DNA of 12,529 nucleotides from a virus (Duplodnaviria; Heunggongvirae; Uroviricota; Caudoviricetes): positions 1-12,529 of the IMG/VR virus record IMGVR_UViG_2657244940_000007, one strand, 5' to 3'. The notes under the pieces were generated by a model, which was not told the DNA's origin, did not search any database, and worked only from the letters and a program-made list of their open reading frames with translations. Numbering within the stretch: the stretch's first letter is position 1; the number at the start of each line of letters is the position of its first letter. This document shows positions 1-12,495 of this stretch, piece after piece. The translations under genes and the position numbers were made by a program.

Positions 1-419
1 TTTACACGCTCCAGCAGGATGCTTTGCTCATGGTAATAGTCCATAAGAAGAGTAACATCCTCTTTATCAAGCTTACTTAATTCGCTGAAGTAGGATTTAA
101 ACACTTTATCAGTCTGGTTTAATGCAATCTGTAAGCGAGGCCCCCCTAATGATTTGACATTAATGGCAAAAGGCTCGCCAACAAAATGCTCCGAATTTTC
201 GTCAAAGCCAATATATCTCGTTTTATCAAGAAAAGTGAGAGCGCGATGGTTATTAGCGATTTCATATGCAAACATTGTTCTGATACTGTCCCTCTCAGCC
301 TCCATGCTTATATCATCACGATGATTTGTATAAAATATATTTCCAACAAAGAGAACCATGGCAAGAATCACTGAACTTGCCTCCCAGTTAATATTTTTTA
401 ATCGTCGCTTAGTAAACAT
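1..419 (-). CDS. Partial CDS (5' end only; continues beyond window start): hypothetical protein with N-terminal hydrophobic anchor, carried in AT-rich accessory DNA at the P2 Z/fun-equivalent position
   Basis: My own reverse-complement translation from ATG at 419 gives 139 codons with no stop: MFTKRRLKNINWEASSVILAMVLFVGNIFYTNHRDDISMEAERDSIRTMFAYEIANNHRALTFLDKTRYIGFDENSEHFVGEPFAINVKSLGGPRLQIALNQTDKVFKSYFSELSKLDKEDVTLLMDYYHEQSILLERV... AAGGTG Shine-Dalgarno-like motif a few nt upstream of the ATG. One ~17-residue hydrophobic stretch (SSVILAMVLFVGNIFY). An uninterrupted frame this long in AT-rich DNA is unlikely by chance. Not in the supplied ORF track, presumably because it is open at the window edge. 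No family recognised. Confidence 0.6.
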   Translation of the reverse strand, partial: MFTKRRLKNINWEASSVILAMVLFVGNIFYTNHRDDISMEAERDSIRTMFAYEIANNHRALTFLDKTRYIGFDENSEHFVGEPFAINVKSLGGPRLQIALNQTDKVFKSYFSELSKLDKEDVTLLMDYYHEQSILLERV

Positions 420-640
420 ACCGCACCTTAATTATCAAAAATATTCCTTCAGTGTTATCTGGTTAGCCTAAACCAAGTCATTAAAGTCTGCAGGATATCA
501 TATACATAAAATGTATTGATTAGAATTTGCACTAATAAAATAATGCTTTACTAAAATCTACTCCAGACACAGAGCGGCCTGTCAGATTAGGCTTTACTCT
601 GTGCCATAGATATGTTTGCTCACTCCAGAGATCATACAAC

Positions 641-1168
641 TTATTGCGGCATTTCCGGCCATTCAGGATTTGCAGGATCCACACGACTGACCAGAACGCT
701 GTAACGCTCCCATGCATCCAGTCGGCTACGCTCCTCATCTGTTGCCATGTTCAGTCTGACCGCGCGCTCCAGCGGCAAAATCACGGATTCAGCATCTGCA
801 AGAAGTCTGGCTTTCCGGTTTTCTGCCTGCTGCAGCAATTCCTCTGCCGTATAAATGCGTTTAATCACTTTGCCGTCCTTAAACATCCAGCCCCCTGAAA
901 TGTCCGCCCGTCGGTTAGCAGTAATATCCGCCACTTCAACAACACTTAATCCATCCGGTCTGATAGCTGTCACATCCTTTTCCACATAGCGGATAATATT
1001 ATCTTTGTCGTACGCTATTTTTATCGTGTCATCAGCAAAATACTTTTGTTCTTCGTACCAGTTCTTACCATCTTCTGAAAAAAACCAGACAACATCAAAA
1101 CCCTTTGTCAATTGATATTGTTCAACCGTTTTTGGATTACCCGCCGTAATATTTTTTAAATGCTGCAT
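641..1168 (-). CDS. G: Phage tail fibre assembly protein (P2 gpG-like chaperone)
   Basis: 175 aa, same length as P2 gpG. Begins MQHLKNI and ends ...[14 protein letters not shown], as I recall for P2 G / Tfa family. Lies 3 nt downstream of the tail fibre gene on the same strand. Confidence 0.85.
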
Positions 1169-1171
1169 AAA

Positions 1172-3931
1172 TTATACCTGCGCCACGTTATACCATGTCC
1201 CGTTAATGTATTTCTGAACCGGCCTGTAATATACACCACCAATGTTATCGGCAGAGTTTGAGCCGGTATCCTGAACAATAATGCCGGAATATACACACCC
1301 GGACGGTGCCTGATGTGTCCATGTCATGCCATTGTTCGCAGGTTTGTATGTGGCAGCACCACCAAGCCGGATATCCCGGACATAGCGGGAATCAAAGTTA
1401 CCGTAATCCGAGGGATTAACACGCCCCGTAATATTTATGGTTTTATTACTTTGAATACTTCCCGAGACAAAGCGCATAATATGGACGCTATTAGCATAAA
1501 CATCCAGATTACCATCACCATTTTGTTTAAAGCCCGTGTCATTATCACCCAAAACAATCGAATTACCGCCAAGAGCACTGGATGTTCCTATACCCAGAGC
1601 ACCATTCAATTGACCACCAGATAACGGCAGTGCACCGACATCTCCCGCTGTAGGTTTTCGCGTTGTGGTATAAAACTCAGACCAGTCAGCCTCGAATCCG
1701 TAACCGTCACGAGCAGAACGATAAAAAATACCGCCGTTCTTATAATTAACGCGGAACTGGGCGGCGGGACAACTTCCTTCACCGATATTAAAATGAAGAA
1801 TTAACGTTGATGCCCCACCAGTAGTTGCGTTATAGGCTCCGCTACTCCAGTTCCACCCAACGGCTTTATCATTCGCAACGGTGTCTCCTGTTTTTCCTGA
1901 AGCAAATGCACCAATATTTTTCGGCGTCAAGTTAATATCTGATGTTCCATCAAACGAAACGTTATTAATTTTACGGGCTGTTTTCAGCTTTGTTGCTGTC
2001 GCCGCATTGCCGGACAGTTCACCAGAAAGGCCAGCACTGAATGTCTGTTTCGCGCCCCATGTCTGGGCTTCGTCAATGATTGGTACTCGTCTTGCTGTGA
2101 TCGTGCGGCTTCCCGGATTTCCTGAAATACGCACCATAAAAAAGCGGTAGTTCGCTTTACTTACAGTGCTGCGCCATACATGCATTGAGCGCCCCGTACC
2201 GGAATCATCACTCGGACCAACTGCGATGTTTATCAGGTTGCCATCAATGACGCCCCAGTCCATACCGTCGGGAATGTTGGTCATGTTATCAAGCCGCACG
2301 GTTATCAGACTGCCCGGCACAAAATCGTAGGTCTGCCAGTCCAGACTGGATAGTTTTGCCACTGCGCCACCGATGCCCAGATTCAGAGGCAACGAAAAGG
2401 AGTTATATACTTCTCGCCATTCGGTCCATTTGCTCCCGGCGTAGACGCGCTCAAAAGTGCGTCCCTGTGTGGTTTCTGATTTCCCTGTGGTTGTGTAACG
2501 CTGCCAGACAGACACACCATCAAAACGTCTGATTACTTCCAGTATCCCAAGTAGTGTCGCGCCAACGGTGTCCAGCATCGGACCGTTTGTTGCCTTTCCT
2601 GTAACACTGTAAATACCGGGGTCGGTTAGAACATTTAAATCACCTTCGTAATAACGACTCTCTGACTGATGACCGACTCTTAACCACGGTTCCCACTGCG
2701 GATTTGATGCATCCCAGCTTGCCGCAAGACAGCGGACATACATATTTCCACGGCGAGTGGTATAACGTTGCGTTCTTCCATAATTTCCGCCTTCGAGGAT
2801 CTCAAGCATCCCCTGAGCAAAGCCGCCTTCCTCTGGATAATTGCGTTCATATGAAGCTATAGCTGAGCTACTGTTACGCCATAAACCAAGATGCTCGGCG
2901 GCTCCAAGCGTATTCAGGTCTATAGTCGTACTCAAAGGGCGGGTAGCAGATTGAGTGTGACGCCATACGCCCCACGGACCATCAGTGCCATTCCACCTAT
3001 TGGCGAGTTTACGCATGTATACATTGCCGTCTCTCGTGGTAAAGCGTTGCGTACCTGCAAAATTGCCGGCAGCAAAAACCTCAAGCACACCGACAGCATT
3101 ATCTTCCGGGAAATTTTTCTCCAGTGTTGCGTTGGTGGATGTTGCTTTAGACCAGATACCTGAATAAGCCTTAACAGGACCAAACGTATTCAGATCAGCA
3201 TCAAGCGGCATTTCGCCATTGTTTTTCATAAACGTCAGGCTGGTAACGCCAACATTGTCCAGAAAAGCTGATTTATCCTGGATATCTGCACCGTTCTGAT
3301 TTTTCGCCAGACGTGAATTTGCGTTGTCATTCGCAGCCTTGACCGCTTTTGGCGTTGCCGCCAGCTTTTCACTGGTGCTGTTTGTTGCACTGCTTAACTG
3401 AGTAAAACCTTTTTCTGTCAGCGTGGCGTCAGGATGGCGGCGGGACTGCTCATGCTCTGCGATTTTGTCATCGACGTAATCCTGCGTAGCCATCACTGTG
3501 CTGGCATCAATACTCAGCTCAACGGACGCCACGTTGCTGAGAATAATAACCATGCGGCAGGTCTGCGCACGTCCGGAGCCTTCAGCCAGTTCTGGCTTAT
3601 AGCTTTCTGCCATGTTGGATACCGCAATCAGTGTTCCGGCATCGTCATACAGACCAAGCTCACGCATCCAGAAGCCGCCCACTTCTGGCGGAACAACCAG
3701 TTCAGCCACAATATAGTTTTTATTCTTATTATCCACACTGACTTTATTCAGAGCGTGACGCCAGACCTCATGCACCAGTTTCGTCTGACCGGCATCCGGC
3801 ACCGGTAATTTGCCATTACCGTCACCCACGGCCATTGCAGACAGGTTTACTTTTTTCCCGCCGGGGACAGTGGCGGCAGCCAGCTTTGCGGCTCCGGCAG
3901 TAGTGATAACGGTTTTAAATTTCGTGCTCAT
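1172..3931 (-). CDS. H: Phage tail fibre protein; P2 gpH-like N-terminal domain with a divergent, repeat-containing C-terminal receptor-binding region
   Basis: 919 aa. N-terminus (MSTKFKTVITTAGAAKLAAATVPGGKKVNLSAMAVGDGNG...) matches the conserved P2 H baseplate-attachment region as I recall it. Middle has three ~55-aa tandem repeats with a G.LE..(x)G..G.TQR[FY]TTR.GN.Y.R core. C-terminus resembles lambda Stf / T4 gp37-type tips. P2 H is 669 aa by recollection, so this is a longer mosaic. Confidence 0.9.
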   Translation of the reverse strand: MSTKFKTVITTAGAAKLAAATVPGGKKVNLSAMAVGDGNGKLPVPDAGQTKLVHEVWRHALNKVSVDNKNKNYIVAELVVPPEVGGFWMRELGLYDDAGTLIAVSNMAESYKPELAEGSGRAQTCRMVIILSNVASVELSIDASTVMATQDYVDDKIAEHEQSRRHPDATLTEKGFTQLSSATNSTSEKLAATPKAVKAANDNANSRLAKNQNGADIQDKSAFLDNVGVTSLTFMKNNGEMPLDADLNTFGPVKAYSGIWSKATSTNATLEKNFPEDNAVGVLEVFAAGNFAGTQRFTTRDGNVYMRKLANRWNGTDGPWGVWRHTQSATRPLSTTIDLNTLGAAEHLGLWRNSSSAIASYERNYPEEGGFAQGMLEILEGGNYGRTQRYTTRRGNMYVRCLAASWDASNPQWEPWLRVGHQSESRYYEGDLNVLTDPGIYSVTGKATNGPMLDTVGATLLGILEVIRRFDGVSVWQRYTTTGKSETTQGRTFERVYAGSKWTEWREVYNSFSLPLNLGIGGAVAKLSSLDWQTYDFVPGSLITVRLDNMTNIPDGMDWGVIDGNLINIAVGPSDDSGTGRSMHVWRSTVSKANYRFFMVRISGNPGSRTITARRVPIIDEAQTWGAKQTFSAGLSGELSGNAATATKLKTARKINNVSFDGTSDINLTPKNIGAFASGKTGDTVANDKAVGWNWSSGAYNATTGGASTLILHFNIGEGSCPAAQFRVNYKNGGIFYRSARDGYGFEADWSEFYTTTRKPTAGDVGALPLSGGQLNGALGIGTSSALGGNSIVLGDNDTGFKQNGDGNLDVYANSVHIMRFVSGSIQSNKTINITGRVNPSDYGNFDSRYVRDIRLGGAATYKPANNGMTWTHQAPSGCVYSGIIVQDTGSNSADNIGGVYYRPVQKYINGTWYNVAQV

Positions 3932-3941
3932 TGTTTCTCAC

Positions 3942-4472
3942 TTATCCGGGATAAACAGTAATAACATCACCATCACAGACCACACCGCCTGTATACAGAT
4001 AGCCGGGAATGTCCTGGATAATGTTCAGACCGATAAGGTGGCGACTTGCGGGTTTGGCATCGGCAATCAGCCGTTCCATTTCCAGATACATCTCCTCCGT
4101 GATGCCGCTTTCCAGCACACCGATATCAAGGCGAAAGGTGCCGGGCGGGTCGTTTGTCTCCCACCATTCCTTTACGTTAATGAGATAGCCGAGCGGCTCC
4201 ACCACACGCCGGATTGCGCCTATAGTGCCTTTATGACAGTGGATGAAATAGGCATCGCGAATAACGGCGCGTTTTGTCGCTTCCGGCCACTTTTCATCCC
4301 ACCTGTCGACCGAAAACGCCCATGCCAGCCACGGCAGCAAATTTGCCGGGCAGGTGTCCGGGTTCCACTGCTCACGAATCCTGACCGGCGTTTTTTCAAT
4401 TTCCGCACAGGCTTTTGCGGCAGCAACTTCAAGCGGTGATGAGCCGGTCGGCAGCAGTCGCGAATCACTCAT
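3942..4472 (-). CDS. I: Baseplate assembly protein I (P2 gpI-like)
   Basis: 176 aa, same as P2 gpI; begins MSDSRLLPTGSSPLEVAAAKACAEIEKTP..., ends ...DVITVYPG. Synteny J-I-H-G. Confidence 0.9.
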   Translation of the reverse strand: MSDSRLLPTGSSPLEVAAAKACAEIEKTPVRIREQWNPDTCPANLLPWLAWAFSVDRWDEKWPEATKRAVIRDAYFIHCHKGTIGAIRRVVEPLGYLINVKEWWETNDPPGTFRLDIGVLESGITEEMYLEMERLIADAKPASRHLIGLNIIQDIPGYLYTGGVVCDGDVITVYPG

Positions 4473-5372
4473 CCGAGCCTCCGGTCACGACGCGGTATTC
4501 GGTGCAGAAAGACGCCTGCGTACTGTTGAGCACGATGTCGGCCAGTGGTGCGGCCAGTTCGACACGCTGCACGCCTTCCACATGCAAAGCGGCATAAATG
4601 GCAGACAGACGGATGTCGCGCCCCAGCCGGTGCTGTGCCGTGATGTATGCTTCCAGTTTTTTCACGGCGGCCGCGCGGATGGGTTCACTTTCGGGACCAG
4701 GGTAAAGGTAAAGCGTGGCGTTTATCTGGTATTCAACAATGGCGGCAGACTGCACGGTCACGCGGTCGGCCACCGGTCTGACGTCCTCGCCATTCAGGGC
4801 GTTACGCACCACCGCCAGCAGGTCTTCGGATGCGACACCGTTATTCTCACGTGACAGCACAGAGATGGTGACGCAGGCCGGAGACGGACTGGTGACAGAG
4901 ATATCCGCGACACGCCCGTCAGCACTGCGGCCATGATACTGATAGGCACCCACCGACCCGGCGACGCTTAAACCTTCAAACGCCTGCTGAATACGCAGAC
5001 GATAATCGGTATCAGATTCCATCACTGCCGGTGTCGGCGGGATAGTCGAATCATCTGCCGGGGTGATAGTCAGACGCGTGGTGTTGTAATTGGCACCAAT
5101 CACATCAAGGTCATTACCCGCGGCACAGGCCAGCATCACCGCCCGTGCGGCCTCATTCACACGCTGACGCCAGATAAGCTCACGATAAGCATTTTCCTCC
5201 AGCAATTTGACGAGAGGCTCGGATTCCAGCGTCAGGGTACGGCGACCGCCTCCTGCTGGTCTTCCGGGTAAAGGGAAATCAGTGTCGCCTTGCGTTCGGC
5301 GAGAATGGTTTCAAAGTCCAGCTCCTCGACCACATCCGGTGCGGGTAGCTGGTTCAGGTCGATAATCGGCAT
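4465..5372 (-). pseudogene. J: Baseplate assembly protein J (P2 gpJ-like) interrupted by an apparent single-base frameshift near 5238..5244
   Basis: ATG at 5372 translates MPIIDLNQLPAPDVVEELDFETILAERKATLISLYPEDQQEAVAVP then TGA at 5232..5234. The rest of J (RTLTLESEPLVKLLEENAYRELIW... to GGSDE) continues in the adjacent frame and is the 4465..5205 ORF in the track, which begins at TTG. Combined length ~302 aa equals intact P2 gpJ. Read directly from the sequence on the minus strand: ...gcg gtc gcc gta ccc tga; one extra C (gcc cgt acc ctg) would restore ...AVARTLTLE... Confidence 0.65.
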
Positions 5373-5376
5373 GGTT

Positions 5377-5724
5377 TCAACTCACAGGGATGGTTAACGA
5401 AAGTGGCTGGCCGGTGTCGTTGTGCTGGCCGGTTAACGTGACCGTCATTCGCCCGTCAAAACTGCGCTCAGTGGTGACGGATGACAGGGTGACGCGGGGT
5501 TCCCATTTCAGCACCGCCATGTAACAGGCGACCTTAATCTGCAACTCAAGCGCCGGGGTCTGCGGCTGGTCAATCATTGACGCCAGCAACGAGCCGTAAT
5601 CACGACGCATCACCCGCGAGCCGACCGGTGTGCGCAGGATATCGCCGATACTCTGGCTGATATGCTCAAGGTCAGTGACAGTCAGGCCATCACTGCAATT
5701 CATTCCGAGATAACGCGCTGTCAT
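5377..5724 (-). CDS. W: Baseplate assembly protein W (P2 gpW-like)
   Basis: 115 aa, same as P2 gpW; MTARYLGMNCSDGLTVTDLEHISQSIGDILRTPVGSRVMRRDYGS... Four-base ATGA overlap with the V stop. Confidence 0.9.
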   Translation of the reverse strand: MTARYLGMNCSDGLTVTDLEHISQSIGDILRTPVGSRVMRRDYGSLLASMIDQPQTPALELQIKVACYMAVLKWEPRVTLSSVTTERSFDGRMTVTLTGQHNDTGQPLSLTIPVS

Positions 5725-6356
5725 AGAGGGCTCCCGGTTGTGCCGCCGCTGTCGCCGGGGTGTTTATGGGTATGCAGTACCTTACCATTTGATGAGAGTT
5801 CACCGCCGGTGTGTTCAATGTTGCCGCGCATCGTCCCGCCCTTCTGTACTTCCAGCGTGCCGGTAATCAGCCTGTTGGTGCAGACCACCTCCGGTGTGTC
5901 CAGGGTGATGCGAGTTGACGCTTTCACCATGACCACCGGCACCGTGGCGATAACAGAATCAGAAGCCGTCACGCTGGCCGTTTTAATTCCGCTTACCGTC
6001 AGTGCACTGGTTTCAGGTTCATACTCAATCACCGCCCCGTCAGGGAAACGGATGTACAGGGCATCCGCCGACGCAGACGGCGCGGGGTTATCACCGGAAT
6101 AAATCCCCGGCAGAACAAACGCCGTGTCGAGTTCGCCGCCCACGGACAGAATCAGCACCTGCTCCCCCACCGAAGGTGCCCACCATGTGCGTGAACGTCC
6201 GGCACGATGAGTCAGCCACTGAAGCCAGTCGGTGCACATGCCGCCGGTCTGCACACGGCAGCGACCGGCATTAAGGTCGGTTTCGACGATAATGCCGGTG
6301 CGAATCATGTTGCGCAGTGCGCGCGCGAGTTCCTGAATATTTGCGAGAGTGTTCAT
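5721..6356 (-). CDS. V: Baseplate central spike protein V (P2 gpV-like)
   Basis: 211 aa, same as P2 gpV; MNTLANIQELARALRNMIRTGIIVETDLNAGRCRVQTGG..., C-terminal HTHKHPGDSGGTTGSPL. Confidence 0.9.
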   Translation of the reverse strand: MNTLANIQELARALRNMIRTGIIVETDLNAGRCRVQTGGMCTDWLQWLTHRAGRSRTWWAPSVGEQVLILSVGGELDTAFVLPGIYSGDNPAPSASADALYIRFPDGAVIEYEPETSALTVSGIKTASVTASDSVIATVPVVMVKASTRITLDTPEVVCTNRLITGTLEVQKGGTMRGNIEHTGGELSSNGKVLHTHKHPGDSGGTTGSPL

Positions 6357-6422
6357 AACGGGAAGGATGCCGCCGGGTCATACCGTCGGCAATGTGACGA
6401 TGAGGTGTCGGGAATGGCACAA
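6357..6422 (-). promoter_or_regulatory. Probable position of the Ogr-dependent late promoter P_V, assigned by synteny only
   Basis: 66-nt S-V intergenic gap, where P2 has late promoter P_V. The only dyad I see is TGT-N10-ACA at 6405..6420, which does not match the TGT-N12-ACA spacing I recall for Ogr/Delta sites. Element not verified. Confidence 0.25.
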
Positions 6423-6875
6423 CTAACGGTCAAGGTGAGCCTGGATAATCTCTTCAATCATCTGCACATCCTCACCGGTAAAGCCGAGCAGAGGACGCGC
6501 CGGATAATCAATCTTCTTACCGTCTTTCCGGTTTTCTTCCGACAGACCGAACTGATGCACACTGGCGATTTTCGGTGACTTTCCGCCGTAAAACTCCATT
6601 GAGGCCTGTTCAGGGCTGGCGCGGATATGCAAAAAACGACTGGTGATAAGTTTCGCAAACATTTTTCGCTTAACGCGACCGGTCTTTTTTCTGGCGCTCT
6701 GCTGCTGACGTGGCGCGTAGGGTGTGCCGTCCGGGGCTTTCTGTGCCATCACCCGACGCTGCTGACTCTGCCGCAGACGCTTCGCCAGTTCGGCACTCAG
6801 TCGCCGACGCCCTGACGGTGACAGCGATTCAATCAGTCCGGTCAGCCGGTCTTCAAAACGCTTAAACTCATTCAT
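6423..6875 (-). CDS. S: Tail completion protein S (P2 gpS-like)
   Basis: 150 aa, same as P2 gpS; MNEFKRFEDRLTGLIESLSPSGRRRLSAELAKRLRQSQQRRV... Confidence 0.9.
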   Translation of the reverse strand: MNEFKRFEDRLTGLIESLSPSGRRRLSAELAKRLRQSQQRRVMAQKAPDGTPYAPRQQQSARKKTGRVKRKMFAKLITSRFLHIRASPEQASMEFYGGKSPKIASVHQFGLSEENRKDGKKIDYPARPLLGFTGEDVQMIEEIIQAHLDR

Positions 6876-7335
6876 CCCACTTGCTCACCAGTTCGCCATT
6901 GATATACAGCTCCATCGGGCGGGTGACCGGCTCCGGCGGCGGGGGTTCCGGGATATTCTTCACATGCAGTGCGCCGTCCACCTCACTGACCAGCGTGCGC
7001 TCGGTCAGCATCAGGCTGATGCTGATATCAAAGCTGCTGTCATTGTTGATGTCTGCATAAAACGTGAAGCCCTTTTTCTGACCTTCGTCGGTGGTCATGA
7101 TGTCGGGCTGATTTTCCCGCAGCCACGCCAGCACCGGCACGATGAGCAGGTCAAAATCACCGGTAAAGTCGGTCACAATGACATTGAGCGTGTAACGCTT
7201 TTCGAATGACAACGACGCCGCCAGTGTGGAGGCAATACTCCCGTTATCCACGAATATCCGCAGCATATCGGGGTTAGTTTTCAGCACCGTGACGGCATCA
7301 GTCAGCGCCCTGCGCAGGCTGTCGGGTTTGAGCAT
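6868..7335 (-). CDS. R: Tail completion protein R (P2 gpR-like)
   Basis: 155 aa, same as P2 gpR; MLKPDSLRRALTDAVTVLKTNPDMLRIFVDNGS... Overlaps the S start. Confidence 0.9.
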   Translation of the reverse strand: MLKPDSLRRALTDAVTVLKTNPDMLRIFVDNGSIASTLAASLSFEKRYTLNVIVTDFTGDFDLLIVPVLAWLRENQPDIMTTDEGQKKGFTFYADINNDSSFDISISLMLTERTLVSEVDGALHVKNIPEPPPPEPVTRPMELYINGELVSKWDE

Positions 7336-7588
7336 CGTTTTCGTCCTGACAGTGTTTAATCATTTTTACCTGGCTGGCACAGCGCGCCAGCGCGTTCTCA
7401 AGCTGCCGGATATCGGCACTTAAATCACCGTTCGTCTCCGGGTCGCTGCCCGGCATCGGGCAAAGACTCACTTTCGGGCAGGCGTTGTGGACAATCACTG
7501 GCATCGGTGCAGGCGGGGCGCTGGTGCAACCGGCGCACAGCATCAGGCAGGTCAGCGCCGTACCAGCGGCGAAAATCTTCGTTTTCAT
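7298..7588 (-). CDS. lysC: LysC, Rz1-like outer-membrane spanin (lipoprotein), embedded out of frame in the 3' part of lysB and running into the R start
   Basis: 96 aa. Signal-peptide-like N-terminus with Cys-containing lipobox-like segment (MKTKIFAAGTALTCLMLCAGCTSAPPAP...), proline-rich mature part. Embedded arrangement is the established P2 lysB/lysC organisation. Confidence 0.75.
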   Translation of the reverse strand: MKTKIFAAGTALTCLMLCAGCTSAPPAPMPVIVHNACPKVSLCPMPGSDPETNGDLSADIRQLENALARCASQVKMIKHCQDENDAQTRQPAQGAD

Positions 7589-7868
7589 TCAGTAATCTCG
7601 TGATGGTTTTCTCGCGCTGTGCTTCACGCTTCGCGGCGTTCTCCAGTTCCTGACGCAGTACCACCTGCGCCAGCTCGTTTTTGTCTGCTCTGGTGAGGGC
7701 AACATGAAGCTGATTTTTCAGCATGGTGATGGTCGTCTGCTGCCCGCTGGCGACGTTGTTCGCCCTGTCCAGCGAGGCGCGCAGGCTGGCGTTTTCATGC
7801 TTCGCCAGAAACAGCCCCGCCACCGCCAGCGATAACAACACAACCATCACAATCATCAGCCTTGACAT
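7425..7868 (-). CDS. lysB: LysB, Rz-like inner-membrane spanin
   Basis: 147-aa ORF (P2 LysB ~141 aa by recollection, so the true start may be an internal Met). N-terminal TM helix (MIVMVVLLSLAVAGLFLA) followed by a charged coiled-coil-like region. Position between lysA and R. Confidence 0.8.
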   Translation of the reverse strand: MSRLMIVMVVLLSLAVAGLFLAKHENASLRASLDRANNVASGQQTTITMLKNQLHVALTRADKNELAQVVLRQELENAAKREAQREKTITRLLNENEDFRRWYGADLPDAVRRLHQRPACTDASDCPQRLPESESLPDAGQRPGDER

Positions 7869-8281
7869 GGTTCCCGCCCCTCAAGACGCTGACGGCAGGC
7901 CGTGCGTATCAGCCGGAAAAACAGCGACGCCACGAGATAAATCAGCGCGGTAAAAATCCACCCGGCAGCGACCAGCGAGATAAATGTCGCCACCATCACA
8001 ACCAGAGCCGCCGCCCGTCTGCGCCACGGCACCGGCTGCAAAAACAGCGACGTGACAATCTTCACGGCCAGCGATTCCGGCGGCAGCTCCCGCCCGTAGC
8101 GTTCCAGCACATACTCAGTGGCATACACGCCGACACCACCGGCAAACACACAGATAACCATCGCCAGAATCGCCCATGCGGCGACAAAACTGACGGCCAC
8201 GCTCTGCGGGTAAATCAGGGACAGTGCCAGCATCAGCGCCAGCGACACGTTCAGCATCAGTGAAAGGGATAATTTCTTCAT
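7856..8281 (-). CDS. lysA: LysA, multi-pass membrane protein affecting lysis timing (P2 LysA-like)
   Basis: 141 aa, same as P2 LysA. Several hydrophobic segments. Position between K and lysB. Confidence 0.8.
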   Translation of the reverse strand: MKKLSLSLMLNVSLALMLALSLIYPQSVAVSFVAAWAILAMVICVFAGGVGVYATEYVLERYGRELPPESLAVKIVTSLFLQPVPWRRRAAALVVMVATFISLVAAGWIFTALIYLVASLFFRLIRTACRQRLEGREPCQG

Positions 8282-8295
8282 GGTGTTTACTCCGT

Positions 8296-8793
8296 TTAAG
8301 CCGGTACGCCGCCAGCGGTACGCCAGACGGTGACCAGTTTTTCCAGTGAATGCTCACGCTGACCGTAACCGGCACCCGGCAGGGACGCCCAGATATTGCG
8401 ACAGCGTGAAATGGCGCGCTCAATACATCCCGCCCGGATGTCATCCAGCGCACCGCGTTCGCGGATCAACTGAATGGCGAGTCTGTCCTGTGACAACGGA
8501 CTGAAATCCGGCAGGGCAAGCTGTTTGCGGTAATGCGGCCAGAACAGGTAAAGCTGCTGATAGCGACCGGAGGCCGTGGATTTTTCACCGCGACGGTTAA
8601 ACACCTTCGCCGGTCGGCCATGCGCGAACGGGTGGTCACTGTAGTCGGTGAAAATTTCCGGCTTCCCGTCCAGTCCGGTGACTATCACGTCATAGCCCCG
8701 GTTTTTCGTCAGCGGATGATTCGCCGTCCCTTCGGACACGGCCAGCATGTCGAGAAAGGCGGCGATATTCTGATGCGTGTTAATTACCGGCAT
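8296..8793 (-). CDS. K: Endolysin (P2 gpK-like lysozyme)
   Basis: 165 aa, same as P2 gpK; MPVINTHQNIAAFLDMLAVSEGTANHPLTKNRGYDVIVTG... Immediately downstream of the holin with overlapping stop/start. Confidence 0.9.
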   Translation of the reverse strand: MPVINTHQNIAAFLDMLAVSEGTANHPLTKNRGYDVIVTGLDGKPEIFTDYSDHPFAHGRPAKVFNRRGEKSTASGRYQQLYLFWPHYRKQLALPDFSPLSQDRLAIQLIRERGALDDIRAGCIERAISRCRNIWASLPGAGYGQREHSLEKLVTVWRTAGGVPA

Positions 8794-9074
8794 TACGGTT
8801 TCCCCCTGCCCTTAAAACGGCGCTGAATGGCAATCTCAATCACCTGATAACCGGCGATACCCAGCATGGAGCCGATGCCGCACACCGCAGGCAGTGACAG
8901 GTCAGGAAACTGCACCAGAACAACACCGGCAACCATCGAGACAAAACCACCGAGCAACATGCGCCCGATAAACAGACGCGGGGTGATGGGTTCACCACCG
9001 GCAAGCACCTTGCCGACAACAATCAGCACCCCAATCATGAAAAGCGACAGGACGCTTTTTTCTTCTGCTGTCAT
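8793..9074 (-). CDS. Y: Holin (P2 gpY-like)
   Basis: 93 aa, same as P2 gpY. Hydrophobic segments with a charged C-terminal tail (…QRRFKGRGKP). Directly precedes the endolysin. Confidence 0.9.
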   Translation of the reverse strand: MTAEEKSVLSLFMIGVLIVVGKVLAGGEPITPRLFIGRMLLGGFVSMVAGVVLVQFPDLSLPAVCGIGSMLGIAGYQVIEIAIQRRFKGRGKP

Positions 9075-9077
9075 GCG

Positions 9078-9281
9078 TTACTCCCACAGATTGACAGTTT
9101 CAGCCACGGGCGCGGTCTGAACGTCGGGCAGTTCGACGGCGGTGCCGTGCGGCAGCACCGCACCCAGTTCAGCCAGTCCCGGATTTGCGGCGAGCACGGT
9201 CTCAACCACGCCCTCAGTGCGCCCGTAATACCGGACACAAATGGCGTCGAGCGTGTCGCCCTGTAGCGCAAAGGTCTTCAT
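9078..9281 (-). CDS. X: Tail protein X (P2 gpX-like)
   Basis: Taken from the internal Met (MKTFALQGDTLDAICVRYYGRTEGVVETVLAANPGLAELGAVLPHGTAVELPDVQTAPVAETVNLWE, 67 aa = P2 gpX), not the 90-aa track ORF, whose 5' extension overlaps the preceding gene. The ATG at 9281..9279 overlaps the upstream TGA as TGATG. Confidence 0.8.
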   Translation of the reverse strand: MKTFALQGDTLDAICVRYYGRTEGVVETVLAANPGLAELGAVLPHGTAVELPDVQTAPVAETVNLWE

Positions 9282-9532
9282 CAGATTTGACTCACGATGC
9301 AGCGCGGCTTGTCCTGGATACGCGCCACCGCCCAGCGCATATCCCGCCACAGCTCATCAATGGTGCTGTCTATGCTGTCGGCCTTTTTGTCGCCTTTCGC
9401 ACTGGCATCCACGCCGCGATAACGCTCATAAAGCGACGCGGTCGCCATCGCACACACGGCGCGCCCGTAGTAAAAAACTTTGATGCTTTCACCGTCGATG
9501 TCGTCCGCCGGGACGTCCGCCAGACGAATAAC
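9281..9532 (-). pseudogene. L: 3'-terminal remnant (~83 codons) of phage capsid-completion gene L, fused in frame to the truncated treF
   Basis: C-terminal part of the 470-aa track ORF (…[81 protein letters not shown]) matches the end of P2 gpL as I recall it. Position immediately upstream of X fits P2 order L-X. No intact L N-terminus and no M, N, O, P or Q genes follow. Confidence 0.7.
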
Positions 9533-10693
9533 ATCGCGACGGGCACTGGCCTTCTGGCGGAACAGTGCTTCTGTCTCTTTCTCGCCTTTCAGCGCCGAGA
9601 TGTTGGCGATGGCGCTCTCCAGTTTAAACAGGAAGGCATTCAGATCGATGGGGATGAACTGGGTGGTACGAATGCTCGCCAGACGACCAGTATCACGCAG
9701 CCAACGGGAAGAGTAATCCCAACCGGAGGCCGCCCCCGCACGTAAATCGCGGTACACCTCGTTAGGCGGGCGACCAGAATGTTTCGCGGTTTCAACGTCC
9801 TCAAGCCAGGATTCGTCACGCGGCGTGTCGCGATCGTCCCAGTAACGGTTGAGCAGCGAGCCGTCCGGCATCCGCACAACATGGCGATAGGCCTGATTAG
9901 GGATCAACGATTCTGCACCGTCCATCCAGAAGGCATATTCCATTTTCAGGTGGTCGAGATAGCGGCGCGCGCCGCGTACACCATCTTCTTCAAACAACTC
10001 CACCATCAGCGCAAAAACCGGTGGTTGCGAGCGGCTCAAATAATAGGTGCGGTTGCCGTTGGGGATGTGGCCGTAGTTTTCGATCATCCAGGCGAAGTTA
10101 TCGGCCATGCATTTCAGCAAATCTTCCCGACCACTTTCCGCCAGCCCCAGCATGGTGAAATAGGAATCCCAATAGTAGGTTTCGCTAAAACGGCCGCCCG
10201 GGACAATATATGACTGCGGCAGCGCCAGCAGAGAAGACCACGGAATGTGATCCTGTGGTTCACGGGTTAGCACCGGCCACAGCTGGTCGATATGCTCTTT
10301 CAGGGAATTTTGCGGGTCCGATACATACTCGCTGGAGTAGACCTCCGGCAGCCAGAAGTGGTTTTCAACAAACTTGCGCAAGTCAAAATCACGATGACGG
10401 CGCACTTTACGGTAGCGGATTAAAATATCCAGCGGGTCCATTTTGGGTGCGCAGTCGGGAAAGGTTTTACTGTCGGGGAAAATTTTCGCCGACTGAACAT
10501 GCTCGAACAGTTCGAGATAGCGATCGGCAGGCGTCAGCGCATCAGAGGCGGGCAGCCCTTCAATCATCTCGGGTTCCGGTTCTGCCTCGATCATCTCATC
10601 CAGTTTTAATTCATACGGGTCCAGCTCATAGCAGAGATCGACCTCGATCATCAGTTCGTCTGGATTAGGGTTTTGAATTTTCTGATTGAGCAT
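9533..10693 (-). pseudogene. treF: Cytoplasmic trehalase gene treF, 5' portion only (codons 1 to ~387 of ~549), truncated by fusion to prophage DNA
   Basis: N-terminus [70 protein letters not shown]... matches E. coli TreF through ...[13 protein letters not shown], then switches to phage-L sequence instead of the expected AVNRYLWDDENG... GGAGG Shine-Dalgarno ~9 nt upstream of ATG 10693. Divergent from yhjA as in K-12. Confidence 0.85.
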
Positions 10694-11097: not shown

Positions 11098-12495
11098 ATG
11101 AAAATGGTCTCACGTATTACCGCGATCGGCCTGGCTGGCGTCGCGATTTGCTATTTAGGGTTATCTGGTTATGTGTGGTACCACGATAATAAACGCAGTA
11201 AACAGGCCGATGTTCAGGCATCTGCTGTCAGTGAAAATAATAAGGTTTTAGGCTTTCTCCGCGAAAAAGGATGCGATTATTGCCATACGCCTTCGGCAGA
11301 ATTACCTGCCTATTATTATATTCCCGGCGCGAAACAGTTGATGGATTACGACATAAAGCTTGGATATAAATCTTTTAACCTCGAGGCCGTGCGTGCGGCT
11401 CTGCTGGCTAATAAACCCGTTTCGCAAAGCGATCTGAATAAGATTGAATGGGTGATGCAGTATGAAACTATGCCGCCAACGCGTTATACCGCGCTACACT
11501 GGGCGGGTAAGGTGAGTGATGAAGAGCGGGCGGAAATACTGGCCTGGATTGCAAAACAGCGCGCGGAATATTACGCCAGCAATGATACTGCTCCGGAGCA
11601 TCGCAATGAACCGGTGCAGCCCATCCCGCAAAAACTGCCTACCGATGCGCAAAAAGTGGCGTTGGGTTTTGCGCTGTATCACGATCCCCGTTTATCGGCT
11701 GATAGCACCATTTCATGCGCTCATTGCCATGCGTTGAATGCGGGGGGCGTCGATGGCAGAAAAACATCGATTGGTGTTGGTGGCGCAGTTGGGCCGATTA
11801 ACGCGCCGACGGTATTTAACTCAGTATTTAACGTTGAGCAGTTCTGGGATGGTCGTGCGGCAACATTGCAGGATCAGGCTGGTGGACCGCCGTTGAACCC
11901 GATTGAAATGGCGTCGAAATCCTGGGACGAAATTATTGCTAAGCTGGAAAAAGATCCGCAGCTTAAAGCGCAGTTCCTCGAAGTCTATCCGCAAGGTTTC
12001 AGTGGCGAAAATATTACTGATGCCATTGCTGAATTTGAGAAAACATTAATTACGCCGGATTCCCCATTTGATAGATGGTTGCGTGGAGATGAGAATGCTC
12101 TGACGGCGCAACAGAAAAAAGGCTATCAATTATTTAAAGATAATAAATGTGCAACTTGTCATGGTGGTATTATTCTCGGCGGACGTTCCTTTGAACCGTT
12201 GGGGCTGAAAAAAGACTTTAACTTTGGTGAAATTACGGCGGCGGATATTGGTCGTATGAATGTTACTAAAGAAGAGCGTGATAAATTGCGTCAGAAAGTA
12301 CCCGGTTTACGTAACGTTGCTTTAACGGCACCGTACTTCCATCGCGGTGACGTGCCGACGCTGGACGGGGCGGTGAAACTGATGCTGCGCTATCAGGTAG
12401 GCAAAGAGCTGCCGCAGGAGGATGTGGATGATATCGTCGCTTTCCTGCACAGTCTGAACGGGGTTTACACGCCGTATATGCAGGATAAACAATAA
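11098..12495 (+). CDS. yhjA: Triheme cytochrome c peroxidase (YhjA/Ccp), membrane-anchored
   Basis: 465 aa. Three c-type haem motifs: CDYCH (res 59-63), CAHCH (207-211), CATCH (351-355). N-terminal hydrophobic anchor (ITAIGLAGVAICYLGLSGYVW). GAGGGAAG Shine-Dalgarno 6-9 nt upstream of the ATG. Matches E. coli YhjA from memory. Confidence 0.95.
   Translation: MKMVSRITAIGLAGVAICYLGLSGYVWYHDNKRSKQADVQASAVSENNKVLGFLREKGCDYCHTPSAELPAYYYIPGAKQLMDYDIKLGYKSFNLEAVRAALLANKPVSQSDLNKIEWVMQYETMPPTRYTALHWAGKVSDEERAEILAWIAKQRAEYYASNDTAPEHRNEPVQPIPQKLPTDAQKVALGFALYHDPRLSADSTISCAHCHALNAGGVDGRKTSIGVGGAVGPINAPTVFNSVFNVEQFWDGRAATLQDQAGGPPLNPIEMASKSWDEIIAKLEKDPQLKAQFLEVYPQGFSGENITDAIAEFEKTLITPDSPFDRWLRGDENALTAQQKKGYQLFKDNKCATCHGGIILGGRSFEPLGLKKDFNFGEITAADIGRMNVTKEERDKLRQKVPGLRNVALTAPYFHRGDVPTLDGAVKLMLRYQVGKELPQEDVDDIVAFLHSLNGVYTPYMQDKQ

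Follow-up and report, generated by a model that had tools for sequence, protein, structure and literature searches.

Complete P2-like phages express their late genes from two operons that are activated by Ogr, P_O (O N M L X Y K lysA lysB lysC R S) and P_V (V W J I H G). In P2, the proteins Y, K and LysB/LysC bring about cell lysis, while V, W, J and I make up the baseplate bearing the H fibres, which are folded by G. What true decay of a P2 prophage leaves behind is illustrated by PR-X in K-12 (ogrK and yegZ, i.e. D'), an element of the P2 family of about 630 bp in which only ogr and a fragment of D persist.

Gene sets of this kind are also known from R-type phage-tail-like bacteriocins, or tailocins (R-pyocins, the Dickeya dadantii tailocin), the baseplate, fibre and lysis genes of which are homologous to those described here. 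P2-related tailocins do exist in Enterobacterales, as exemplified by that of Dickeya dadantii, which is described as resembling the tail of Peduovirus P2 (PMC10719855). The label has been used as well for a 'tailocin' of ST131 that came from a pangenome analysis and is a P2-like E. coli prophage with tail genes that map onto pyocin R2 (PMC9205054). In the passages of that study concerned with it, the label is derived from sequence homology alone, the prophage of the region is scored as intact, and neither particles nor killing are reported (PMC9205054). We regard that case, as far as these passages go, as the same over-reading as the one discussed below and not as a precedent.

Gene content of the window

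The DNA analysed here (hereafter the window) is the entire 12,529-bp contig CDRA01000063.1 of the draft assembly GCA_000947375.1 (locus L012). Comparison of the two sequences found them equal except for three N-to-A replacements, all at one join. A literature search returned no mention of the assembly accessions. The features are as follows.

1-419, minus strand: slot ORF, 5' part of a 181/197-aa ORF, function unassigned (phrog_3829 2e-137); the contig ends inside it
641-1168, minus strand: G, tail fibre assembly protein, 175 aa, intact (PF02413 Caudo_TAP 3e-34)
1172-3931, minus strand: H, tail fibre, 919 aa, intact (PF12571 3e-57, PF03406 1e-20, PF12604 5e-5)
3942-4472, minus strand: I, baseplate/tail protein, 176 aa, intact (PF09684 Tail_P2_I 1e-54)
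4465-5372, minus strand: J, baseplate assembly protein, disrupted (PF04865 Baseplate_J 1e-23 on the C-terminal part)
5377-5724, minus strand: W, gp25-like baseplate wedge protein, 115 aa, intact (PF04965 1.5e-14)
5721-6356, minus strand: V, baseplate spike, 211 aa, intact (PF18715 2e-28, PF04717 6e-21)
6423-6875, minus strand: S, tail completion/virion morphogenesis protein, 150 aa, intact (PF05069 5e-44)
6868-7335, minus strand: R, tail completion protein, 155 aa, intact (PF06891 1e-45)
7298-7543, minus strand: lysC, Rz1-like outer-membrane spanin (PF23793 LysC 6e-17; RefSeq annotation of the 118UI counterpart)
7425-7868, minus strand: lysB, Rz-like inner-membrane spanin, 147 aa (phrog_89 2e-61; RefSeq annotation of the 118UI counterpart)
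7856-8281, minus strand: lysA, membrane protein, lysis timing modulator, 141 aa (phrog_162 2e-67)
8296-8793, minus strand: K, endolysin, 165 aa (phrog_90 1e-69; RefSeq 'glycoside hydrolase family 24')
8793-9074, minus strand: Y, holin, 93 aa (PF04550 Phage_holin_3_2 3e-42)
9078-9281, minus strand: X, tail protein X, 67 aa (PF05489 4e-32)
9281-9526, minus strand: 3' end of L, head completion protein, last 81 of 169 codons (PF05926 Phage_GPL 49-139 of 139, 1e-29)
9527-9531: join; AATAA in the window, NNTAN in the public record
9532-10693, minus strand: 5' part of treF, cytoplasmic trehalase, codons 1-387 of 549 (PF01204 1-348 of 512, 5e-105)
11098-12495, plus strand: ccp (yhjA), cytochrome c peroxidase (PF03150 3e-57; RefSeq annotation)

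The preliminary description had reported a P2-type block of lysis, baseplate and fibre genes, and the ORF map together with Pfam and PHROG searches bears this out, since all the genes that it named are present on the minus strand where it had placed them, with E-values from 1e-14 to 1e-112. The order X-Y-K-lysA-lysB/lysC-R-S-V-W-J-I-H-G is the collinear P2 late order and is identical in the annotated prophage of strain 118UI; G has the same length as in the intact prophage. The block has its own intact lysis cassette, composed of holin Y, endolysin K, LysA and the spanins LysB/LysC, in which lysC overlaps both lysB and R. For lysA, the Pfam family PF28015 LysA was matched on a gene of equal length and position in sister loci. 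No complete capsid or packaging gene occurs in the window, where the sole head-gene piece is the 3' fragment of L, nor does it contain an att site, int or a regulator gene. The perfect Ogr-box pattern TGT-N12-ACA has no match in the window; the sequence upstream of V contains just an imperfect TGT-N12-ACC, and any claim for a promoter there is limited to the identity of the region with that of viable phages. The phage block is bounded on the left by the contig end, inside the AT-rich slot left of G, and on the right by the join, which leads from inside gene L to inside treF.

Related phages and sister assemblies

The exact H protein is indexed in 43 collection blocks, and 24 contigs were examined among its carriers. 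Over window positions 1-9526, the intact prophage of strain 118UI is 99.8% identical (9,526 bp), as are, at the nucleotide level, the isolated Peduovirus phages P24E6b (NC_049389.1 / LR595885.1), D8 (OM475426.1) and 12W (OM475434.1), which have the same gene order from the slot ORF through G...X into L. A record labelled Peduovirus P2 is 96.6% identical over 100% of this interval. Alignments with the three phages score the same as that with 118UI, in which J is intact, whereas J in the window lacks one C; unlike the three phages, moreover, the window leaves L at 9526 for treF. Compared with intact prophages, the phage block differs by two SNPs and one indel in 9.5 kb. Judged by these identities, positions 1-9526 represent the late genes of a P2-like (Peduovirus) prophage of the ordinary type.

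A fuller view of this prophage is offered by CDRO01000014.1 (GCA_001373195.1), which is 100% identical to window positions 1-9526, J deletion included. On one side it continues through L, M, N, O, P and Q and on the other through the slot ORF, FI, FII, E, T, U, D and ogr, the head, packaging and tail genes being of normal length, so that it carries head, terminase, sheath, tube and tape-measure genes. The sheath and tube genes and ogr had been expected to the left of the window, and this is where they are found in the sister assembly. The ogr end adjoins trhP/cyaR, the K-12 cryptic-P2 site, and the prophage therefore occupies the same chromosomal position as PR-X; its int end was on none of the contigs examined. 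In contrast to the scant remains of PR-X, the window has over 9.5 kb of late genes in an almost undamaged state. The prophage in CDRO01000014.1 is complete and has no treF join, whereas in the window contig the phage ends mid-L at treF. In another sister contig, CDQY01000068.1, the same prophage is joined to rcsC, this time in X, 387 bp away from the join point of the window, with one N exactly at the join. Read literally, the rcsC join implies a deletion of about 140 kb, a region that holds the essential genes metG and folE.

A single-base deletion in J

Alignment with the 118UI prophage and three-frame translation revealed a 1-bp deletion in J near position 5240 (GCCCGT to GCCGT), by which one C is lost from a CCC run. 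The deletion falls at codon 45 and translation stops after 46 codons, leaving, in place of the 302 aa of intact J, a 46-codon N-terminal ORF (5232-5372) and a 246-codon C-terminal ORF that starts from TTG (4465-5205). The frameshift had been noted in the preliminary description, and the same deletion is reproduced in several independent assemblies: it is present in GCA_001373195.1, GCA_000941535.1, GCA_000947375.1, GCA_000936775.1 and the Logan assembly of SRR30543652 (n = 5 samples), the loci that share it with the window being L009, L010, L013 and L014. Because it is common to five different samples, it is a real lineage allele. Its recurrence in these samples also led to the rejection of a sequencing error. 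It was found in none of the 1,420 complete-genome records matching the 71-bp J segment. The metagenome locus L011, which belongs to a diverged phage, was considered as a second case of a J frameshift and rejected, as its J is split due to an N gap. SRR30543652, the source of the Logan assembly, is apparently a run of its own.

What the analysis firmly adds to the biology is modest: a clade of E. coli has a P2-like prophage in which the loss of one base has very recently broken J, presumably knocking the prophage out. With J truncated at codon 45, the baseplate wedge should not assemble; the function of J is predicted to be lost, the deletion would inactivate the prophage in this lineage, and neither infectious virions nor tail-only particles would be expected. 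The preliminary description had leaned to decay over a working tailocin, and the reproducible lesion in J agrees with that leaning.

The join between L and treF

Phage homology ends at 9526, mid-L, and treF starts at 9532; from there onward the window is 99.9% identical to treF of B2 E. coli. In between, bases 9527, 9528 and 9531, shown as A in the window, are N in the deposit and are the only non-ACGT bases of the contig. The 3' end of L is fused in frame to treF codons 1-387, which results in a 470-codon ORF (9281-10693). The NNTAN pattern may mark a scaffold-type join.

Among 5,426 complete E. coli genomes, not one has the treF-L join, and an N-tolerant gapped pattern had 0 matches in species-representative genomes and 0 in JGI metagenomes. 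The exact junction string of the window had no match in genome_contigs or metagenome_contigs, but this string is flawed since three of its bases are really N. Similarly, exact look-up of the 470-aa fusion protein returned no record, an absence explained by its N-derived residues. With a 189-aa junction piece as query, no protein combining trehalase and gpL domains was found in a collection of 5.8 billion clusters.

With the prophage placed at 2.17 Mb and treF, in the opposite orientation, at 3.67 Mb, the treF join would need a 1.5-Mb inversion. A nearby attachment site followed by a simple deletion was rejected, given that trhP, where the sister prophage sits, is separated from treF by 1.5 Mb and that the two are in opposite orientation. 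The two breakpoints showed neither repeats nor IS ends, and no k-mer was common to them. A de Bruijn misjoin at a shared k-mer was also rejected, the breakpoints having no common sequence. It is unusual for a scaffolder to join two unique sequences unless several read pairs link them, which counts against a scaffold join, and breakpoints free of repeats, IS ends and shared k-mers would allow for a real rearrangement, clonal or in a subpopulation.

Probable origin of the headless appearance

In our estimation the window probably shows a very recently inactivated but otherwise ordinary P2-like prophage, seen via an unverified scaffold join and a contig end, and not a tailocin. The contig would have been stitched from mid-L to mid-treF across N bases, while on the left it would have stopped in the AT-rich slot. 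The absence of head and packaging genes would then most likely be an effect of the draft contig rather than a genomic truncation, and the missing genes (the 5' half of L and M, N, O, P and Q; FI, FII, E, T, U, D and ogr) would most likely be on other contigs of GCA_000947375.1. On the basis of the sister assemblies, the remaining prophage genes are expected to be present in this isolate. The N-marked join, the contig end and the complete identical sister prophage make it likely that head genes are lacking from the contig and not from the genome. The preliminary description of a remnant keeping only lysis and tail genes took this N-marked join and the contig end at face value and is not secure, given the complete sister prophage; its statement that capsid and packaging genes are lacking holds for complete genes within the window, but it missed the last 81 codons of L and the lack is probably that of the contig. 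The case also calls for caution in that the block is bounded by ambiguous bases, which the window shows as A without any mark, while the identical prophage is complete elsewhere.

It is possible, if doubtful, that the join is real and arose by illegitimate recombination between mid-L and mid-treF, producing an in-frame TreF(1-387)-gpL(89-169) fusion in a decaying remnant. Both breakpoints fall in unique sequence, where no repeat could lead an assembler astray; the treF and L parts are co-oriented in an open 470-codon ORF; the minus strand has no terminator-like site from the treF start to X; and a promoter-like match is found upstream of treF (10752-10723). With a real join, X-Y-K-lysABC-R-S would be cut off from P_O, their Ogr-dependent promoter, and be transcribed as a continuation of treF, and the prophage would be doubly defective, in L and in J. 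If the prophage were at trhP, the event would have been an inversion of about 1.5 Mb splitting it in two, whereas if it were elsewhere it would be truncated. An inversion of 1.5 Mb within one replichore is expected to be costly. Moreover, three of the five join bases are N in the deposit, whereas a clonal junction would normally assemble straight through, CDQY01000068.1 has the same N hallmark at an rcsC join implying a deletion of about 140 kb, and the treF-L junction is in no other genome or protein set searched. Were both N-marked joins real, a J-defective prophage would have been broken independently in two sister isolates, each time no further than about 390 bp from the L/X boundary, fusing its tail-plus-lysis block to treF in one and rcsC in the other, which we consider very improbable. 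Such a pair would suggest that illegitimate recombination has a hot spot here at which headless tail/lysis modules come under host promoters, a first step of tailocin birth, and would show tail modules cut loose from heads, a notion that the present data do not support. On this reading, some residual J might still be supplied through rare -1 slippage at the AGGAGG-N11-A-CCC-TGA sequence that the deletion created.

That the locus could be a functional or nascent R-type tailocin, i.e. a headless P2 tail module kept with its own lysis cassette for killing competitors, can be given next to no credence. The idea stems from the tailocin-like gene content noted earlier, which is correct within the contig, where lysis, baseplate and fibre genes stand without head genes, but the same J allele is found in the identical sister prophage, which still has its head and terminase genes. 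When one draft contig has lysis and tail genes but lacks head genes, this is no evidence for a tailocin. Tailocin loci are fixed in the chromosome, are regulated on their own and comprise the whole tail module; here, the lysis cassette corresponds, but J is truncated at codon 45, the genes for sheath, tube and tape measure would be found past the contig end, no dedicated regulator is found in the window, and the chromosomal position is conserved nowhere, being shared by none of the 5,426 genomes. If the join were real, the lysis genes, R and S would be without a late promoter. In addition, a divergence of two SNPs and one indel in 9.5 kb from intact prophages, or 0.2% from viable phages, leaves no time for domestication, so that even with a real join the locus is far too young for an evolved tailocin. 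The window locus is almost certainly no tailocin.

Flanking genes

The chromosomal and cargo genes at the two ends of the contig deserve a brief comment. On the right, ccp is an ordinary chromosomal gene and the contig ends 34 nt past it; the exact Ccp protein is present in 10,188 collection blocks and is uninformative as a marker. On the left, the slot ORF, which has neither a Pfam nor a PADLOC match, lies in a region with a GC content of 0.38, within the AT-rich slot for cargo that separates G from FI and corresponds to Z/fun in P2, its counterpart being a hypothetical protein at 11826-12419 of locus L001.

The late gene block and the lesion in J

The open reading frame (ORF) map and family matches show that the minus strand of the window, between 641 and 9281, holds a block of late genes collinear with those of P2-type phages.

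Late genes of the window, with the family match and its value where applicable
G: 641-1168, minus strand, Caudo_TAP, 3e-34
H: 1172-3931, minus strand, tail-collar fibre, 3e-57
I: 3942-4472, minus strand, Tail_P2_I, 1e-54
J: 4465-5372, minus strand, broken
W: 5377-5724, minus strand, gp25-like, 1.5e-14
V: 5721-6356, minus strand, spike, 2e-28
S: 6423-6875, minus strand, 5e-44
R: 6868-7335, minus strand, 1e-45
lysC: 7298-7543, minus strand, PF23793, 6e-17
lysB: 7425-7868, minus strand, Rz-like spanin, 2e-61
lysA: 7856-8281, minus strand, phrog_162, 2e-67
K: 8296-8793, minus strand, endolysin, 1e-69
Y: 8793-9074, minus strand, holin, 3e-42
X: 9078-9281, minus strand, 4e-32

No tRNA genes were found in the window. 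Over positions 1-9526, identity to three isolated phages, Peduovirus P24E6b, Escherichia phage D8 and 12W, is 99.8%, and the intact, fully annotated prophage of E. coli 118UI is as close as these isolates. The gene names and coordinates of the preliminary description are therefore correct, the agreement being far beyond chance, and on gene order and identity to isolates the block is assigned to the genus Peduovirus. The substitutions that distinguish the window from the 118UI prophage fall in clusters, with seven in a 31-bp patch of H (2066-2096), 12 in X and the truncated L (9147-9512) and almost none elsewhere, as is usual for the recombinational mosaics of P2-like phages. H (1172-3931, minus strand) encodes 919 aa, with a gp37_C-like segment at residues 679-754, and since classical P2 H has ~669 aa, the receptor-binding part of the window's H is of another type.

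The sole indel in 9.5 kb relative to the 118UI prophage is the loss of one base near 5240, in J, where the coding strand reads GTC GCC GT instead of GTC GCC CGT. The broken gene reads 44 native codons followed by Val-Pro and a stop, being thus cut at codon 45, and the other 246 codons sit in a different frame behind a TTG. The deletion occurs in none of the 1,420 complete-genome records containing the 71-bp segment. An exact look-up of the 246-aa product matched 14 contigs, among which the DNA is identical through the deletion in five samples (GCA_001373195.1, GCA_000941535.1, GCA_000947375.1, GCA_000936775.1 and the Logan assembly of SRR30543652, apparently a run of its own and counted as a separate sample). 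Whether this frameshift was real had been left undecided; because it recurs in five samples, the sequences identify it as a real allele of a small clade rather than a random read error. The metagenome scaffold L011 was rejected as a further carrier, J being split there by a 10-N gap. The lesion is very recent, since only two substitutions and this indel separate window 1-9526 from the nearest prophage whose J is intact. gpJ belongs to the baseplate wedge and resembles gp6, and mutants of P2 in J form no tails; the truncated J would thus be predicted to have lost its function. The deletion also leaves AGGAGG-N11-CCC-TGA-C on the coding strand (5225-5260, minus strand of the window), where a -1 slip at A-CCC-TGA would bring the J frame back, but this arrangement is probably a coincidence because the Shine-Dalgarno-like hexamer occurs in the wild-type sequence too, and any slippage there would be expected to stay at background.

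Contig edges and sister assemblies

The window is the whole of the 12,529-bp contig CDRA01000063.1 from the draft assembly GCA_000947375.1. On the left, the contig ends at position 1 inside a 181/197-aa ORF in the AT-rich slot that separates G from FI, so that the flank in which the sheath and tube genes were to be sought is absent from the record. On the right, phage homology stops at 9526 within L, and homology to treF, the cytoplasmic trehalase gene, picks up at 9532, in the interior of that gene. The two gene fragments form one in-frame ORF of 470 codons, matching positions 1-348 of 512 of the Trehalase profile and then positions 49-139 of 139 of Phage_GPL. Compared base by base with the public record, the window shows only three differences, at 9527, 9528 and 9531, which are N in CDRA01000063.1 (ccagacgNNtaNcatcgcg) and A in the window. 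Since the contig has no other ambiguous bases, the phage-chromosome junction coincides exactly with an unresolved point of the assembly. The AATAA of the window at this join is partly placeholder, N having evidently been replaced by A; both this junction sequence and the Val-Ile that it gives the fusion ORF are thus spurious. The right end of the contig (12496-12529) lies 34 nt past the cytochrome c peroxidase gene ccp and ~177 nt short of the gadA start of complete genomes. Several other draft contigs stop within gadA, presumably owing to the near-identical gadA and gadB repeats.

The genes said to decide between tailocin and decaying prophage lie outside this contig but are intact in an identical prophage. 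CDRO01000014.1 (GCA_001373195.1) shows 100% identity to window 1-9526 and extends beyond it at both ends, with L (169 aa), M, N, O, P and Q at one and the slot ORF, FI, FII, E, T, U, D and ogr at the other, each as long as its counterpart in the 118UI prophage; head and terminase genes are likewise intact. It terminates next to trhP(yegQ)/cyaR, where the cryptic P2 remnant of K-12 sits. A second contig, CDQY01000068.1 (GCA_000941535.1), holds this prophage too, J deletion included, but its phage part begins 387 bp further in, within X, and is preceded by atoD-atoC-atoS and an rcsC interrupted at K-12 coordinate 2,318,029. A single N stands precisely at the rcsC-X join, with no other in the 14.7-kb stretch. 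At 4219-6135 of this locus (L010), rcsC codons 1 to ~616 meet the 3' end of X out of frame.

Is the treF join real?

In favour of a real rearrangement at treF, both breakpoints fall within unique sequence, where no repeat, IS end or shared k-mer was found that could explain a misjoin, and a scaffolder join requires several concordant read pairs. However, the join passes through N bases, and the different join of the sister assembly bears the same hallmark; read literally, with the prophage at trhP, the rcsC-X join implies a deletion of ~140 kb, a stretch that includes the essential genes metG and folE. The prophage late genes lie at 2.17 Mb (minus strand) and treF at 3.67 Mb (plus strand), and the join would mean a 1.5-Mb inversion within one replichore. 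Moreover, a clonal junction of unique sequences would normally assemble without ambiguity, and the contig ends on both sides suggest that the sample also has reads into intact L and intact treF. A genuine rearrangement is thus a tentative reading, and the join probably does not faithfully depict a clonal truncation. That real, recurrent breakage at the L/X boundary makes headless modules is highly improbable. The treF-L junction was found in none of 5,426 complete E. coli genomes, nor in species-representative genomes or JGI metagenomes, and the treF-L fusion was not found in the protein cluster collection.

Expression and the tailocin question

In complete phages of the P2 family, late promoters are activated by Ogr. 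There, the transcript from P_O (O N M L X Y K lysA lysB lysC R S) encodes the capsid, lysis and tail-completion proteins, and that from P_V (V W J I H G) encodes the baseplate, the fibre and its chaperone. SOS induction is generally not seen in P2-type prophages. Window 5241-8876, from upstream J to Y, is identical to the 118UI prophage, so any promoter in the S-V intergenic region is unchanged. This region holds an imperfect TGT-N12-ACC element, and the perfect consensus TGT-N12-ACA has no match anywhere in the window. If the treF join were real, X to S would be without P_O and could be transcribed only by read-through from treF; between treF and these genes, the minus strand showed no terminator-like site. 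Given the truncation of J at codon 45, a derepressed prophage may still lyse its host while making no tails, so that neither phage nor tailocin yield would be expected.

The locus had been described as tailocin-like in gene content, with the evidence leaning to decay. The genes are as named, but their tailocin-like selection is most probably a by-product of contig structure, namely an N-marked join and a contig end. The locus has a defective tail module and no conservation at this chromosomal position, and the block shows none of the divergence from active phages expected of a tailocin; among the features tested, only the lysis cassette is shared with tailocins. The element belongs to a known, ordinary kind and has recently acquired a single mutation that is predicted to inactivate it. 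The element published as a 'tailocin' of E. coli ST131 is a P2-like prophage too and owes that name to its homology to pyocin R2 (PMC9205054), while genuine P2-like tailocins are described in other Enterobacterales (PMC10719855).

The slot ORF (window 1-419, minus strand; whole gene at 13513-14106 of L004; GC 0.38) matches phrog_3829, of unknown function, and gave no Pfam or PADLOC match. Such slots in P2-like phages often hold anti-phage or moron genes. In another strain with the same prophage type (L007, GCA_028481585.1), an IS200/IS605-type transposase gene (Y1_Tnp) lies at 9497-9955, separating the slot ORF from FI, the sheath gene.
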